Assembly: GCA_015522145.1 (NCBI GenBank)
Contig: WAMV01000005.1
Span: 1 to 22,891, forward strand
Direction: 5' to 3'
Source: Candidatus Aenigmatarchaeota archaeon
Lineage (GTDB): Archaea; Aenigmatarchaeota; Aenigmatarchaeia; CG10238-14; WAMV01
Length of the DNA stretch: 22,891 nucleotides
The notes beneath the pieces were generated by a model that worked only from the letters and a program-made list of their open reading frames with translations, did not search any database and was not told the DNA's origin. This document shows, piece by piece, positions 11,851 to 22,221 of this stretch; within the stretch, counting starts at the first letter, position 1; each line of letters starts with the position of its first letter. The position numbers and the translations under genes are program-made.

Positions 11851-12113
11851 GGGGGTGTGTTGGTTGTAGCCCCCCTTCTGTTTGGGTAGCATTCGTCTGA
11901 GCGGCTTACGCCTTGCGCCTCATCGAGGTCTAGGGGCCGTTTCACCTTGCTGCGTATCATAGCTCATATCTAATCCTTGCTCAAGCACAGCAAGTATCGT
12001 TTCTGATCCCCCAGCTGCGCTTTCGCGCAGCTACTTTCGTAGCCCTCTCAGCGGGGGGAGCTTCCTCAGCCTTGCGTTGAAGCAAGGCCGAAGCTACCCA
12101 ACCAACCCACCCC
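11851..12113 (-). ncRNA. rnpB: RNase P RNA (reduced, type M-like)
   Basis: Minus strand shows P1 GGGGUGGGUUGGUU/AACCAACACACCCC, P2 GGGUAGC/GCUACCC, CR-I GAGGAAGCUCCCCCC, CAGAAAC, UGAAAC, GCAAG and CR-V AACAGAAGGGGGGCU. Confidence 0.96.
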
Positions 12114-15413: not shown

Positions 15414-15552
15414 CCTTTTTCTTTTTTTAATTTTTTTAAACAATCCAGCTTCCATTACGGGTCATTTTTATAAGTCCAGATTCGTTAAAATTGCTACTGT
15501 TAAGATAATTAACGCTCGAGTAATAGTTTTGCATTATTTACCATATTTTTAA
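15379..15552 (+). CDS. Possible small membrane protein (TM + ITG motif)
   Basis: From ATG 15379: MKALITFLLLTSLFLFLIFLNNPASITGHF...; overlaps both neighbours. Confidence 0.3.
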   Translation: MKALITFLLLTSLFLFLIFLNNPASITGHFYKSRFVKIATVKIINARVIVLHYLPYF

Positions 15553-16342
15553 CAGATTTTTCACTTCGCCCAAGAAGTCTTCTCAAAAATTTGAAATCAG
15601 AATAAACCAAATCTTTTATTGTCACAATCCCAACTTCGCTAAGCTTCTCAATTTCCTTTTCATTTAAGCCTTTTAGTATGGTTATGGGCTTTACCTTAAA
15701 CTTCTCTATGTAATACTCTATACCCCTTCCTTCTGGAGAGTTCCAACCCATTATATCTATACCTCTACACTTAGCGTATTTTTTAGCGTGAGCGCTGAAT
15801 TTAGAGTTTGAAACTAAAATCGCTTTATCGAAATATATTCTGTTTTTCTCTTTATAGTAAGCTTCTCTCAGATCTTGAAGAGTCGAGTTTAATTGTAACA
15901 GTACATCCATTCCTATCATTGTGTGGAAAGAAATGTGGTGTTTCACTTCAATTAAATAAATCTTATCATCCTTCTTTGCTATTACATCTATTTCATGTTC
16001 GCTACACAAACCCTCTACTATTCTACCATGCTCTGTTTTATAGCCCATCTCCTGAAATAATCTTTGGACAAAAATTTCAAATCCTGGTTTAGGTGGTAGC
16101 AAGCTTAGTGCCTCTCTTAAATCCATAAATCGCCTTATTTCAGGCATATAGTTAGATAATTGGGTATAAACCAATCTCAACAGTTTTTTAGTTGGTATAC
16201 CGTCGTAGACCTTTTTTTCCACTTCGTTAGCCACTATATTAGCTATTCTGTTAGATGCCCCAAGCTTTAAACATGTTTTTACTATTTTTCTTCTATCAAA
16301 AGGCTGTTTGGTTCCATCAGCTTTTGTGACGTAAATAACCAT
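15509..16342 (-). CDS. ATP-cone + Mrr-like PD-(D/E)xK endonuclease + C-terminal helical domain
   Basis: N-terminal VTKADGTKQPFDRRKI (ATP cone); FEIFV...HEIDVIA...LIEVKH nuclease motif. Confidence 0.88.
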   Translation of the reverse strand: MVIYVTKADGTKQPFDRRKIVKTCLKLGASNRIANIVANEVEKKVYDGIPTKKLLRLVYTQLSNYMPEIRRFMDLREALSLLPPKPGFEIFVQRLFQEMGYKTEHGRIVEGLCSEHEIDVIAKKDDKIYLIEVKHHISFHTMIGMDVLLQLNSTLQDLREAYYKEKNRIYFDKAILVSNSKFSAHAKKYAKCRGIDIMGWNSPEGRGIEYYIEKFKVKPITILKGLNEKEIEKLSEVGIVTIKDLVYSDFKFLRRLLGRSEKSVKNMVNNAKLLLER

Positions 16343-16407
16343 AATAATAGATTGATTTTTAAAGTTTATTAAACATTAATGATTAACTTTAGATGTTAAC
16401 AGTAAAC

Positions 16408-16415
16408 TTTAAATA
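16408..16415 (+). promoter_or_regulatory. TATA box for the unknown ncRNA
   Basis: TTTAAATA ~25 nt upstream of 16441; same octamer and similar spacing as at rnpB and the tRNA. Confidence 0.6.
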
Positions 16416-16440
16416 TAGCTAAAATCAAAATTTAATATTG

Positions 16441-16674
16441 TTGGGCATATGGGTAGGATAATCCCATCGAACAATGATGGGATTATCTGGCCATTATAGG
16501 CTCTGGTGCCGGTCCAGGCTAATATGGTGAATGGGCAACCCTCCGAAAGGAGGGTAAATCACCATATTAGCTCCCGGGGCACCACCCTATAATGGTCGAG
16601 GGGTCTGTAAGTAGCGGTGTGGACCGGGCACTTCCGGGTCACTTGCTACGATCAGGCCTCTCTACCCAGCCCAA
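16441..16674 (+). ncRNA. Unidentified highly structured ncRNA (four-way junction)
   Basis: GC-rich island between genes. Terminal helix 16441-56/16662-74 and three arms (16457-87, 16488-598, 16599-661). GAAA tetraloop and G-U wobbles favour the + strand. Confidence 0.8.
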
Positions 16675-16676
16675 AA

Positions 16677-17165
16677 CTATAATTCTTCTTTGATTTTGGA
16701 TTTCAAAGCTTCTTTTTTCATACCAAAATAAGCTTCAAGCTCTTTAGTTAGATAAATAATCTTTGTTCTTCCTTGCTGTTTAGTTTTTATGAGACCTCTC
16801 TCTTCTAATTTTTTTACATAATCATAGACTTTGTTTCCCTGAATCTTAACTAAATCAGACTGTTTGACAGGTTCATTAAGTATTATTAAACCAAGTGTCC
16901 TTGCCATGCCTGGTGATATGTCAGCGTTAGTGGCTATATGCTTTATGTACTCCCTGTATTGTGGCTTAATCCTAATTTCATACCCTAACTTTGTCTCAAC
17001 CAAATCTAAGCTTTTATCCTCTAACTCCTTTTTTAGACTTTGTAAAACAAACAAAGCTTCGTTTTCGTCAGAATTTATAAGCTTAGCTATTTTACTCAAA
17101 CTTATTGGTCTTTCAGATGCAAAAAGTGCTGCCTCGACAACTCTCTTCTTTTCTTCAAAGTTCAT
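16677..17165 (-). CDS. scpB: Segregation and condensation protein B
   Basis: VEAALFASERPIS and RTLGLI...PVKQSDL...LEERGLI...GRTKI motifs; start ATG 17165 (alternative GTG 17183). Confidence 0.92.
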   Translation of the reverse strand: MNFEEKKRVVEAALFASERPISLSKIAKLINSDENEALFVLQSLKKELEDKSLDLVETKLGYEIRIKPQYREYIKHIATNADISPGMARTLGLIILNEPVKQSDLVKIQGNKVYDYVKKLEERGLIKTKQQGRTKIIYLTKELEAYFGMKKEALKSKIKEEL

Positions 17166-17187: not shown

Positions 17188-17862
17188 TTATTCTAAAGCT
17201 TTTAGATATATTTCAGCAAATGGTTTTTCTTGCTTGCTCCTTACCTTATCTTTAGCTTCTAAATGAAGCACGGGAACAAAATTATCTACAACAGAATCTC
17301 TTTCCCATCTACCGACAAGCTTAGAAAAGGGTACTTCTTTCATTTCTTGTTCTAGTTTTTTAATTTTTGTAAAAACCTTTTCTATTTTTTGCTCTATGTC
17401 TTCCTCTTCAATTCTAACTTCAATTTCTCTTCTTATGATATCCCTTTCAAAGAATTCTCTAGCTTTCTTCTTTTCCTTTATCTCCATTGCTTTTCTAACA
17501 GCAGAAATGAGCTCCTCTATAGTTATGGGTCTCTTAACCCGTTTTTTAATTGGGTAAGCAACTTCTATTTCTTCTAAAGGAATTTCCAACTCTATTAGCT
17601 CTGCTGCTTTTTCTTCTTTAGGTTGATATAAAAGTTGCTCGGCTTTCATTCTTAGCAATATAGAAGCTACAAATACAATTTTTGCTGGAATTCTAAAATC
17701 TAGCTCTTTAGCCTTTCTCAAAAACTTCAAAAATCCATAAACAAGCTTAGAAATATCAACGTCCCAAGGGTCTATTTTCTCTTCTCCTACAACATAATAA
17801 ATTAATTCTTCCCAACTTTCCTTCTCTATTATTGTTTTTAGTATATTTTCTTCTTTGCTCAT
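17188..17862 (-). CDS. scpA: Segregation and condensation protein A (kleisin)
   Basis: IDPWDVDI, ASILLRMKAE, RPITIEELI and FVPVLHL...Q.KPFAEIY motifs; coupled to smc by ATGA overlap. Confidence 0.93.
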   Translation of the reverse strand: MSKEENILKTIIEKESWEELIYYVVGEEKIDPWDVDISKLVYGFLKFLRKAKELDFRIPAKIVFVASILLRMKAEQLLYQPKEEKAAELIELEIPLEEIEVAYPIKKRVKRPITIEELISAVRKAMEIKEKKKAREFFERDIIRREIEVRIEEEDIEQKIEKVFTKIKKLEQEMKEVPFSKLVGRWERDSVVDNFVPVLHLEAKDKVRSKQEKPFAEIYLKALE

Positions 17863-20348
17863 GGTAATTTCACCATTAAAACTTTTGATTCGCCATTTTC
17901 CATAGTAACTCCATATATTCTATCTGCTAGCTTAAGTGTTTGATCGTTATGCGTAATAACGATAAACTGAGTGTTTTTGGAAAGTTTTTTAACGTATTGG
18001 GCAAATTTTTTGGAATTTTCTTTGTCTAAGGCAGCATCTACCTCGTCTAAAACATAAAATGGAGCCATTCTGTAAAATTGTAATGCAAATATGAAAGCTA
18101 AAGCAGTTATGCTTTTTTCCCCACCAGACAAAGCATCTATGTTAATTGGTCTTCCTCCCTTTGGGTTTGCCTTAATGATTAGGCCGGCATTTATATCATC
18201 ATTTTCTAGCTCTAGCGTAGCGTTGCCTCCAGTTAAGTTATAAAAAACTTCTGCAAATTTAGCTGAAACCTTATTAAATGTTTTCATAAAAACTTCTCTC
18301 TTCTTTTCTTCAATCTCGTTAATCAGTTTTATGATGTCTTGTCTTTCTTGAACTATTTTTTCGTATTTTTCTTTGAACTCTTCAAAGTCTTGCTTAGCTT
18401 TTTCATATTCTTCCACAGCCCTCCAGTTTATAGCTCCTAAACTTCTCAATTCTTGCTCTTTTTTCAGAAGCATATCTCTTAAAACGTTAGGAGCTTCTTT
18501 AATTGGTTTAACATCTTCATATTCTTTAAGCTCTTCTTGCAAAGAGTTTATTTCTACATCTAGCTTAGCTATTTCTATCTTCAAGCTGTTAATTTTGTTA
18601 TCAATTTCTGTTTTCTTCAAGTATAGCTTCTTTCTTTTTTGCTTTAATTTTTCAAGCTCAGTTTCTGAAATTATCTTAGCCTTTTCTAACTGTTTGTATT
18701 GAGTGGTGTCAACGACCAAGCTAGAAATTTTCTGTTCCAACTCTTTGTTGATTTTCTCCAGCTTTTCTATCTGTTCTAGCAATTTTTCTCTTTGTTTTAT
18801 TGCCATGTCTATTTCTTTGGAAATTTTCTTAGACATTGCATCTGGATGATGTGTAGTTATATAACCACCAGTAATATAGCCAGTTGTTTCTATTAAATCT
18901 CCATCAAGGGTTACCATTCTTGCTTTCCCAACACCTATTCTTTTAGCAACCTCTAAATCTTTAACCACTAGTGTATTTCCAAAAACATATTCTATTGCTT
19001 TTATGAATCTTGAATCGTATTTGACTAAATCGCTAGCCAAACCATAAACTCCATATTCTTTAAGCAAGCTTCTATCTACAACTTTGCGAACGGTTATCTT
19101 GTCTAAAGGTATAAAGTTTGCTCTACCAAGCTTTTTTTCTTTTAGAATTCTTATACATTGAAAAGCAACGTCTTCGTTTTCTACAATAATATCAAACAAA
19201 TGATGTCCAGCTGCAACTTCTATAGCAATCTTAAACTTTTCTGGAACTTTAATCACATCTTTTACGATTCCATAAACACCCTTTATGTTCATAGATAACA
19301 ATTCTTTAACCGGTCTTGGTATAGTTGCAGAAATTTCTTCCATTCGTTCTTCCAAGCTTCTGAGTTTTTCAATGTTCTGTTCTATTCTTTTTATTTCGTT
19401 TTTGTAGCTTTCTATAAGCTGCTTATTCAGCTCTAACTGGGATTTAAGTCTTATTCTTTCTCTTTCCTTCTCAATTTCTTTTGAGAATTTTAGGAGTTGG
19501 GAAAGTAACTTAGTAATATCCTGCTCCTTTTTAGCCAACTCTTCCTCTAACTTATTTATTTTTTCTTCTGTTTGAGTTAGATACTCTTTGTATATTTCAA
19601 TCCTATTAATAATTTTTTCTTTTTTTTGGTTGAGCTCGTTAAGTTTTGCATGCAATAAAGAGGCTTTTAGTACTTTGATTTTTCTACTTATTTCCTCATA
19701 CAGCTTAGCAGCTCTCATCTCTTCTTCAAGCTTCCTTACATTTCTCAACTTTTGTTCATAAATTATCTCAGCCTGTCTTAGCTTTTCATCAACTTTCTCT
19801 AAATCCCTTAAAGCTTTCTCTTTTCTTTGGTTGTATTCCTCTATGCCAGAAATTTCATCTATAATTCTCCTTCTTTCTACAGGGTTCATATCCAGTATTC
19901 TGGTAGTATCGCCTTGGTACACAATATTATAACCATCTGCCCTTATCTTAGCTATGGAAAGTACTTGCAATATTTTATCTCTTGTCGTGGTTCTTCCATT
20001 GAGTTTGTAAACAGACACACCTTTTTTATTTATTTTCCTGGTAATGATTATCTCGTCCTGATCAAAAGGGAAAACGCGCTTAGAATTGTCAAAATATATT
20101 TGTACCACAGCTTCTTGAGCACCTTTCTTTATGCCTGCGCCATCATAAATCAATTTTTGAAGCCTATCTGCCCTTAAGGACTTAGCAGAAATTTTGCCCA
20201 AAACAAAGGTTATAGCATCTACTATATTGCTTTTCCCAGAGCCGTTTGGTCCAGCTATAGCTGTAAACCCTTTAGAAAATGGTATAACAGTTTTTTTGTT
20301 AAAGCTCTTAAAACCCTGAATAACTATCTTGGTTATGTAAGTATCCAT
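17859..20348 (-). CDS. smc: Chromosome segregation protein SMC (short-armed, 829 aa)
   Basis: GFKSF, GPNGSGKSN, hinge GVYG...GRANFIPL...RMVTLDGD...GYITGG, LSGGE and LDEVDAALD. Confidence 0.96.
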   Translation of the reverse strand: MDTYITKIVIQGFKSFNKKTVIPFSKGFTAIAGPNGSGKSNIVDAITFVLGKISAKSLRADRLQKLIYDGAGIKKGAQEAVVQIYFDNSKRVFPFDQDEIIITRKINKKGVSVYKLNGRTTTRDKILQVLSIAKIRADGYNIVYQGDTTRILDMNPVERRRIIDEISGIEEYNQRKEKALRDLEKVDEKLRQAEIIYEQKLRNVRKLEEEMRAAKLYEEISRKIKVLKASLLHAKLNELNQKKEKIINRIEIYKEYLTQTEEKINKLEEELAKKEQDITKLLSQLLKFSKEIEKERERIRLKSQLELNKQLIESYKNEIKRIEQNIEKLRSLEERMEEISATIPRPVKELLSMNIKGVYGIVKDVIKVPEKFKIAIEVAAGHHLFDIIVENEDVAFQCIRILKEKKLGRANFIPLDKITVRKVVDRSLLKEYGVYGLASDLVKYDSRFIKAIEYVFGNTLVVKDLEVAKRIGVGKARMVTLDGDLIETTGYITGGYITTHHPDAMSKKISKEIDMAIKQREKLLEQIEKLEKINKELEQKISSLVVDTTQYKQLEKAKIISETELEKLKQKRKKLYLKKTEIDNKINSLKIEIAKLDVEINSLQEELKEYEDVKPIKEAPNVLRDMLLKKEQELRSLGAINWRAVEEYEKAKQDFEEFKEKYEKIVQERQDIIKLINEIEEKKREVFMKTFNKVSAKFAEVFYNLTGGNATLELENDDINAGLIIKANPKGGRPINIDALSGGEKSITALAFIFALQFYRMAPFYVLDEVDAALDKENSKKFAQYVKKLSKNTQFIVITHNDQTLKLADRIYGVTMENGESKVLMVKLP

Positions 20349-21596: not shown

Positions 21597-22038
21597 AGTG
21601 TTGAGTGAAAAGGAAGTAAAGGAGTTTCATTCACGCTTAAGACTACAGTTTGGTATTGAAGCTAAATTTGATTTTGTATTGTTAAAAAGAAAAAATAGAA
21701 TATTGATTGCTAATAAAGAAATTTTGAAAAATAAAAAATTGTTCAAATTAAACGTGCAAAGAGCAGGTTTATACATCGCAAAAGTTGATGAAAAAAGTAT
21801 TAAGCTAAGTATAGAGGGTTCTCAAATTTTTGGAAAGTATGCTAAGAAAAATATTGTTGAGCTAAACGAAGAAGAGTTCAAAAAATGGATGCAAGGCTTA
21901 GATATTAGAAAATCTTTAGCTAAAGGTGTTTACATAGTAAAATACAAAGAACATTATCTAGGTACAACAACTTCTGATGGCAAAAGACTTATGAATAGAG
22001 TCCCTAAAGAAAGAAGGTTTAGTTTATCAGAGTCGTAG
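21574..22038 (+). CDS. PUA/Nip7-like partner of the m5C methyltransferase
   Basis: TTG start with SD GGAGG at 21560-21564; RAGLYI...KLSIEGSQ...KNIVEL...WMQGLDI resembles the RsmF C-terminal PUA-like region. Confidence 0.75.
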   Translation: MPKLGKYEVLSEKEVKEFHSRLRLQFGIEAKFDFVLLKRKNRILIANKEILKNKKLFKLNVQRAGLYIAKVDEKSIKLSIEGSQIFGKYAKKNIVELNEEEFKKWMQGLDIRKSLAKGVYIVKYKEHYLGTTTSDGKRLMNRVPKERRFSLSES

Positions 22039-22081
22039 GTCTTCATCATTAATCAGCGCTCAGCGGGTATCATCACTTAAT
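22024..22081 (-). ncRNA. Box C/D guide sRNA
   Basis: Minus strand: C GUGAUGA (22076-70), guide UACCCGCUGAGCG, D' CUGA (22056-53), C' AUGAUGA (22049-43), guide AGACCUACGACU, D CUGA (22030-27). All four boxes are consensus with 13- and 12-nt guides. Confidence 0.92.
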
Positions 22082-22083
22082 CA

Positions 22084-22221
22084 TGGGCCCGGCGGGATTC
22101 GAACCCGCGACCTACGGGTTTCTTTGCCATCATTAAATCAGAGCTTTTAAGCTCAGCTGGCTTAAAAGCCTCGGCGGCTTCACATCGCCTCCGCCGCTCT
22201 ACCATGCTGAGCTACGGGCCC
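22084..22221 (-). tRNA. tRNA-Lys(UUU) with two introns (30/31: 22190-22170, 21 nt; 37/38: 22162-22120, 43 nt)
   Basis: Acceptor GGGCCCG/CGGGCCC-A, D arm GCUC/GAGC, T arm GCGGG-UUCGAAU-CCCGC. Removing both BHB introns gives anticodon arm GCGGG-CUUUUAA-CCCGU. No encoded CCA. Confidence 0.92.

Follow-up and report, generated by a model that had tools for sequence, protein, structure and literature searches.

A candidate loop–loop lock in an orphan structured RNA gene of a very small DPANN archaeon

An internal-loop pocket and a hairpin tip of one orphan structured RNA are complementary over two separate stretches, and we consider that the two probably dock in some form. The RNA is encoded by a Candidatus Aenigmatarchaeota archaeon, in a 22,891-nt stretch of DNA that was analysed as a whole (hereafter the window) and that is contig C5 (WAMV01000005.1) of a 323-kb, 81% complete assembly (GCA_015522145.1). 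The host genome, of ~0.4 Mb, is that of a very small DPANN archaeon, and reads matching it occur in hydrothermal-vent sequencing runs; no RNA run was among those listed, which is neutral as evidence. The arrangement that we propose, and whose chances we judge to be about even, is an intramolecular lock: the tip of arm C would sit in the pocket of arm B of the same molecule and compact a stable, possibly circular RNA. A preliminary description of the DNA had read the complementarity as a paranemic-crossover-like docking of two loops. Of that reading, a match beyond chance, a net favourable energy before penalties and steric feasibility in cis have held up; the flat, side-by-side paranemic form has not.

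The RNA gene lies between an ATP-cone/Mrr-like gene and scpB, both of which are encoded on the minus strand, and is antisense to both. It forms an island of 54% GC in a genome of 34% GC. The plus strand of 16440-16678 folds with −140.5 kcal/mol and a z-score of −12.5, and the minus strand has a z-score of −10.0. The gene and the elements at its start are as follows.

16440 to 16678, plus strand: orphan structured RNA gene of ~239 nt with predicted ends, a linker-free four-way junction (P1, A, B, C)
16408 to 16415, plus strand: TATA-box-like element TTTAAATA, a putative TATA box 25 nt upstream of the predicted start
16432 to 16443, plus strand: 12-nt word across the predicted start, with two copies in the 323-kb assembly, the other being the start of the 16S rRNA leader

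The element TTTAAATA also precedes the 16S leader and the RNase P RNA at a like spacing; by itself the 8-mer is frequent, with 47 copies in the genome. The sequence thus has the look of a real, stand-alone gene for a stable non-coding RNA, with a 16S-like promoter and predicted expression. Its secondary structure was resolved into the following features.

16450 to 16455, plus strand: closing helix P1, paired with 16663-16668
16456 to 16488, plus strand: arm A, a 13-bp hairpin, with two 1-nt loop deletions in the X5 contig
16489 to 16597, plus strand: arm B, made up of 12 bp, a 3x1 loop, 7 bp, the 6x5 pocket, 14 bp, a 7x3 loop, 7 bp and a GAAA tetraloop
16501 to 16503 and 16585, plus strand: 3x1 loop of arm B, the hinge in 3D models
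16511 to 16516, plus strand: 5′ strand of the pocket, partner of 16620-16625 (helix H1), unpaired with a probability of 0.80-0.97 at 60 °C in the nested ensemble
16573 to 16577, plus strand: 3′ strand of the pocket, partner of 16634-16638 (helix H2), unpaired with a probability of 0.74-0.88 at 60 °C
16598 to 16662, plus strand: arm C, made up of 10 bp, a 3x3 loop, an upper stem and a two-state tip
16620 to 16638, plus strand: arm C tip, comprising the H1 strand (16620-25), an 8-nt linker and the H2 strand (16634-38), with an alternative local CCGG/CCGG hairpin

Related strains retain the locus. A contig from one of them (X3), which spans 15442-16888 with 97 differences, crosses the whole RNA without a gap. 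Another (X5) differs over 16440-16732 by 11 substitutions and 3 indels, and all of these indels fall in the loop of arm A or in the terminal A-run. None of the 40 differences listed, out of 153, falls inside the RNA.

The pairing proposed in the preliminary description was confirmed letter by letter. GGUCCA (16511-16) and UGGACC (16620-25) are perfect reverse complements, and so are CCCGG (16573-77) and CCGGG (16634-38), for a total of 6 + 5 Watson–Crick pairs. H1 can be extended to 8 bp (16509-16/16620-27) and H2 to 7 bp including two G-U pairs (16573-79/16632-38), if the lower B stem gives up its top 2 bp. The loops had been placed 21-22 bp from the junction and are close to that distance: both lie 22 nt out on the 5′ strands, and 20 and 24 nt out on the 3′ strands. 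The pocket and the tip loop are each carried on 19 bp of stem. The alternative pairs that had been noted within arm C are also real, and correspond to the nested minimum-energy fold. The upper C stem itself has two registers, in which GUG at either 16617-19 or 16619-21 can pair with 16640-42.

To gauge chance, the two-sided 11-bp match was sought under several nulls. With strict pairing, it arose 12 times when the C tip was shuffled, 37 times when the letters of the B loop were, and 9 times in structure-preserving shuffles, each out of 20000; for partners at most 14 nt apart anywhere outside arm B, it arose in 5 of 3000. When G-U pairs were allowed, the corresponding counts were 233, 345 and 135 per 20000 and 188 of 3000. 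Overall, the chance level is 0.05-0.2% for strict pairing and 0.7-6% with G-U pairs, for a loop pair that was picked post hoc among about seven loops. Among 79 internal loops of at least 4x4 nt in 57 natural RNAs, a control set of mostly related, non-independent SRP and 5S RNAs, the single loop to reach 11 bp was this pocket. The two helices do not carry equal weight: the 5-bp helix comes more cheaply than the other, because the RNA contains four self-complementary CCGG words (at 16509, 16574, 16624 and 16634).

The energy of docking was then estimated. Opening both loops, with the upper C stem slipped by 2 nt, costs 12.0, 8.7 and 7.0 kcal/mol at 37, 60 and 80 °C, respectively, and the two new helices give back 25.1, 18.9 and 13.5 kcal/mol. 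Net docking of the 6+5 form accordingly amounts to −13.1, −10.3 and −6.5 kcal/mol, pseudoknot and association penalties left out. In the nested minimum-energy fold, the C tip stays paired with itself until 80-90 °C, and the pocket is largely unpaired. Pseudoknot penalties may cancel the gain at growth temperature, such that docking is plausible and perhaps marginal there.

Strand polarity constrains the form that docking could take. The 5′ flank of the tip is the partner of the pocket 5′ strand, and the C stem therefore enters the pocket apically. If the crossover were flat and paranemic, the same polarity would force arm C back towards the base of arm B, an arrangement that would no longer be side-by-side docking; this part of the preliminary description was not supported. 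We built coarse 3D models with a home-made three-bead A-form representation, in which strain is in arbitrary units, each case was run from 3-5 starts and undocked controls gave 0.0 in three of four runs. With stems intact, cis docking from a side-by-side start reached low strain (1.6-11.2) in four of five runs and failed in one (172), and from a B/C-coaxial start it reached low strain in none of five (106-208). Four runs with the central junction stacked gave 0.3, 6.7, 44 and 77. Cis docking combined with the stacking seen in H/ACA RNAs gave 3.6, 11, 40 and 74, and a further set of runs with this stacking at native arm lengths reached 2.8 at best; the opposite stacking gave 13-140. One fully stacked form had a strain of 6.9-36 with kinks of 60-90°, and the other a strain of 60-304 in three finished runs. 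The linking number was 0 in all four native-length models. In low-strain models, the new helices were splayed ~60-80° from parallel and arm B was bent by ~45-65° at the 3x1 loop. An early idea that intramolecular docking is impossible was ruled out by the low-strain cis models, which speak for the feasibility of docking and not for a preference. The preliminary description had also drawn on the equal lengths of the two arms. Variants with 5 or 8 bp removed from arm B, or 5 bp added to or removed from arm C, still docked (best strain 3.4-8.4 vs 2.8 for native lengths), and 5 bp added to arm B was the sole variant that did worse (19.8). Equal arm lengths thus permit docking and carry no weight as evidence for it.

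The closest likeness is to the pocket of H/ACA RNAs in complex with substrate. In the P1S and P2S helices of that complex, as in the orphan RNA, both strands of an internal loop pair with one partner strand to form two helices of 5-6 bp (PMC2377435). The stacking described there (PMC2377435), with the 3′-strand helix on the lower stem and the 5′-strand helix on the upper one, is also that of the least strained stacked model of the orphan RNA. The orphan RNA also has a single U (16639) after the 3′-strand helix. The two-sided pocket of box H/ACA RNAs is therefore present, but its partner is in cis and inverted, with the loop of the partner at the base of the pocket and its stem at the top. Membership of the box H/ACA class was rejected on further grounds. 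The class has a single-stranded ANA 14-16 nt from the top of the pocket, 3′ of the hairpin (PMC2377435); at that spacing the orphan RNA has no free ANA, and the nearest AUA (16589-91) is paired in the 12-bp stem. No K-turn or K-loop lies 5-6 bp above the pocket, where there are 14 uninterrupted pairs, and no box C or D word was found. An exact target in rRNA or tRNA did not turn up in the assembly, which lacks 23S, 5S and part of 16S; Cbf5 is encoded in the genome.

Designed RNA paranemic crossovers (Afonin, Cieply and Leontis 2008, as cited in PMC10376919; CASP15 target R1128, PMC10168427) offer a second comparison, and paranemic cohesion has been termed a synthetic structural feature (PMC12847892). 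As in those designs, two closed loops of the orphan RNA would exchange strands via two half-turn Watson–Crick helices, of 6+5 or 8+7 bp, and remain unlinked; these attributes appear in the sequence and the models. The helices of the designed motifs are parallel, whereas the feasible form of the orphan RNA is splayed: parallel, coaxially stacked helices would need antiparallel arms and were not reached within one chain. The orphan RNA differs further in that its partner side is the tip of a hairpin, for which another fold competes. Other RNAs whose donor and acceptor loops differ from each other and could pair in cis or in trans are phi29 pRNA and the bicoid 3′UTR (PMC7357161) and, with their bridges, GOLLD, ROOL and OLE (PMC12286853). 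In pRNA and bicoid a single helix of 4-6 bp is used and oligomers have been demonstrated (PMC7357161), whereas the orphan RNA would form two helices.

Several other explanations of the match were weighed. It may be a coincidence, the C tip remaining a local hairpin, the pocket binding protein or nothing, and the complementarity being due to CCGG palindromes that recur in an RNA rich in G and C. Local tip pairs do dominate the nested ensemble, and four CCGG words, a post hoc choice of loops and up to 188 matches in 3000 shuffles with G-U pairs also speak for coincidence. We nonetheless regard it as unlikely, given the low rates under strict nulls, one of which kept arm C fixed, the presence of G or C at 9 of the 11 pocket positions when the other loops are mostly A/U-rich, and a 2-nt slip that re-forms the C stem exactly at the docking boundary. 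Alternatively, the pocket could take the tip of another molecule with the arms antiparallel, in a true paranemic crossover that would build head-to-tail chains, rings or dimers like those of phi29 pRNA and bicoid. Polarity indeed makes the fully stacked crossover antiparallel (145-179° between the B stem and the partner C stem in dimer models), the 8+7 register is near the 8-nt cohesion of designed tiles (PMC12847892), and long-range pairs that covariation had predicted in GOLLD and ROOL turned out to be intermolecular (PMC12286853). However, a tethered partner should beat a free one, and the oligomerisation interface envisaged in the preliminary description fared poorly in the models: dimers had a strain of 22-88 when open (6 runs) and 89-174 when closed and two-fold (6 runs) against 6.9 for the best cis model with the same stacking, a weak and unequal comparison in that the dimer runs were shorter and had fewer steps. 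Cohesion between molecules is, on balance, quite unlikely. The RNA might also be a regulated switch or a trans guide, with both states populated and an open pocket that pairs with another RNA or senses temperature or Mg2+. The two tip registers would suit this, as would a net gain that at 80 °C, with penalties left out, is down to −3 to −7.5 kcal/mol. Being antisense to both neighbours, the RNA is not their leader switch, and the assembly, which lacks 23S, 5S and the 3′ part of 16S, contains no exact target in H/ACA order and two wobble-rich matches in A/U-rich context; we consider such a role very unlikely.

Two further explanations concern the descent or activity of the RNA. It could be a remodelled SRP RNA that lost the SRP54-binding domain after the lineage lost the SRP pathway, the lock replacing the Alu loop–loop helix. 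SRP RNA was found in 58 of 60 relatives and not in this assembly; nor were SRP54, FtsY, SRP19 and SRP_SPB found in it, at 81% completeness, and SecY and signal peptidase are present, so loss of the SRP pathway in the lineage is possible. Moreover, the lineage SRP model, run over 11.9 kb, has its best local match in the RNA (8.2 bits, E 0.067), and the Alu region of the relatives' SRP RNAs contains GGUCCA in 7 of 30 and UGG[GA]CC in 9 of 30. A score of 8.2 bits is nevertheless at the level of any hairpin: the opposite strand scores 7.0 bits, and Rfam members score 97-170 bits. The symmetric SRP54-binding loop of helix 8, invariant in 18 of 18 aligned relatives, is absent from the RNA. SRP profiles gave no match even with doubled or permuted sequence, and positive controls worked; specifically, nhmmer with an SRP RNA profile of the same order found nothing in the doubled circle and recovered a held-out control at E 2e-53. 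Alignment scores were like those of shuffles, 39 of 60 of which were as good. The 81% completeness of the genome weighs on the same side, and we judge SRP descent to be highly improbable. A self-cleaving ribozyme with an active site formed on docking is barely credible. The orphan RNA shares with the hairpin ribozyme a four-way junction and two loop-bearing adjacent arms, an analogy made in the preliminary description. The hairpin ribozyme docks by non-canonical contacts, and its loops are nearer the junction than those of the orphan RNA. The analogy found no backing in the sequence: the loop A/loop B consensus and the hairpin and hammerhead core words are absent, no ribozyme family matched at E up to 10, and Watson–Crick docking would use up all pocket nucleotides.

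The RNA matched no family of Rfam 15 at the gathering cut-off, the only matches being to microRNA hairpins far below it. We also rejected 5S rRNA, which was found in 58 of 60 relatives and not in this assembly and which is marked by loop C, loop E and a fold of two domains: the covariance model scored 5.6 bits (E 5.5), no profile matched the plus strand, and the only 9-mer resembling loop C is buried in arm A. The proteins uL5 and uL18 of this genome both appear normal. In three relatives (L113, L114 and L115; genomes G058, G034 and G018), the 5S rRNAs have insertions of ~18-20 nt in or beside loop C. A permuted tRNA was likewise rejected, as no T-loop word was present.

Beyond the related strains, no homologue was found in 371 genomes of the phylum. 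A BLAST-type DNA search of 60 relatives returned nothing but matches of 14-35 nt, and one of 370 other genomes of the phylum returned matches in four at E up to 0.01; on inspection, these four and five of the short matches from relatives had no similar fold. A single-sequence covariance model found nothing in 117 genomes of the order, nor in 38 relatives with laxer filters. Five genomes reached via their scpB loci yielded just short A/T-rich matches, phages two records with a 29-nt chance match, and plasmids none. Three patterns run against viral contigs gave 0, 0 and 1 matches, the single one being DNA of 70% GC with a different fold. Among relatives of scpB (6 genome and 13 metagenome loci), no such RNA occurs in up to 500 nt downstream, and at loci L061 and L067 scpB directly adjoins the ATP-cone gene, with no RNA between them. 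A link of the RNA to SMC-ScpAB or to the Mrr-like nuclease is thus unsupported by synteny at scpB loci. Downstream of cdc6, for which 22 of 118 genomes of the order had a match, no structured RNA was found. The SMC protein of this genome (window 17859-20348, minus strand) has only 829 aa, and that of a relative aligns over the same length; a typical SMC is longer.

The ends of the RNA hint at possible processing. They can pair into a relaxed bulge-helix-bulge (BHB), composed as follows.

16443 to 16449, plus strand: 5′ half of the relaxed BHB, a strand of the 4-bp helix and a 3-nt bulge
16669 to 16677, plus strand: 3′ half of the relaxed BHB, a helix strand and the A-run, the bulge here being 2 nt

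One published definition of the motif asks for a helix of 4 bp and for one or more bulges of 3 nt (PMC4731332), a relaxed definition that covers the pairing of 16443-49 with 16669-72, in which the second bulge is 2 nt. Slipped registers are 1.8-6.8 kcal/mol costlier. In the X5 contig, an extra A after 16672 would make the second bulge 3 nt; at a depth of 2.8, this letter may be an error. The genome encodes a splicing endonuclease, RtcB and archease. It is conceivable, though we place the chances clearly below even, that the tRNA splicing endonuclease cuts the ends and RtcB ligates them into a circle of ~226 nt. The precedent is the permuted, BHB-circularised SRP RNA of Thermoproteus, whose gene likewise stands alone, lies ~25 nt downstream of a TATA box and has ends that pair as a relaxed BHB (PMC4731332), in a genome that, like this one, has many tRNA introns and lacks a canonical SRP RNA gene (PMC4731332). 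Thermoproteus differs in that it keeps SRP54, SRP19 and the helix 8 motif (PMC4731332); none of these was found here, and the circularised orphan sequence fails SRP profiles.

Outside the window, ORF annotation covered 135 of ~380 ORFs, so an unusual protein partner of the orphan RNA may be encoded among the others. Other RNAs of this genome were noted in passing. The RNase P RNA (window 11855-12110, minus strand; 120.9 bits) is short, at 256 nt, and a 39-position stretch of the model near the 3′ end is reduced to 4 nt; we read this stretch as P15-P17. At window 22024-22221 on the minus strand, an intron-containing tRNA is followed directly by a box C/D sRNA-like sequence, the two probably forming one transcript. 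A tRNA-Arg with anticodon CCU (C12:22444-23172, minus strand; L139:5444-6172) has a ~630-nt interruption whose ends form a 13-bp stem. Within it, the ribosome-binding-like word GAGGAGG precedes the coding sequence of a LAGLIDADG protein of 208 aa (Pfam LAGLIDADG_3, E 2.1e-20). The insert resembles a homing-endonuclease intron, here placed in a tRNA gene; in archaea, such introns are known mainly from rRNA. A K-loop-like hairpin, UGA...AUGA, possibly an L7Ae site, occurs in the 16S leader (L146:7220-7365, C19) and in several tRNA introns (C5, C8, C10, C11 and C19). Arm A of the orphan RNA contains similar K-loop-like words, but its register pairs them.

For the intramolecular lock, we propose the following course. 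Arm B would fold first and leave the pocket open, with the C tip initially self-closed (CCGG/CCGG). The upper C stem would then slip by 2 nt, and the tip would open and pair with both strands of the pocket. The new helices may stack on the two parts of the B stem, one below the pocket and one above it, as in an upside-down H/ACA pocket–substrate complex, with arm B bent at the 3x1 loop. Joined by the lock, the two long arms would make a compact body that withstands heat, and the ends of the RNA are perhaps cut and ligated to a circle. The likely job of the RNA, guessed from the shared promoter word, would be that of a protein-binding scaffold expressed like rRNA.

In literature searches whose coverage leaves out most subscription journals, we found no account of this RNA or of natural paranemic docking. 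On the broadest interpretation, which we offer as speculation and hold to be somewhat doubtful, the RNA would be a case of paranemic-type cohesion in a natural RNA, acting as an intramolecular clamp or a polymerising interface, within a new class of abundant, probably circular RNAs of ultra-reduced archaea. If the lock is real, it would be a natural counterpart, protein-free and heat-stable, of a motif from RNA nanotechnology, and would amount to the H/ACA pocket inverted in cis. A genome of ~0.4 Mb keeps few dispensable genes, and a 239-nt RNA with an rRNA-like promoter therefore probably has a core job that is as yet undescribed in archaea.
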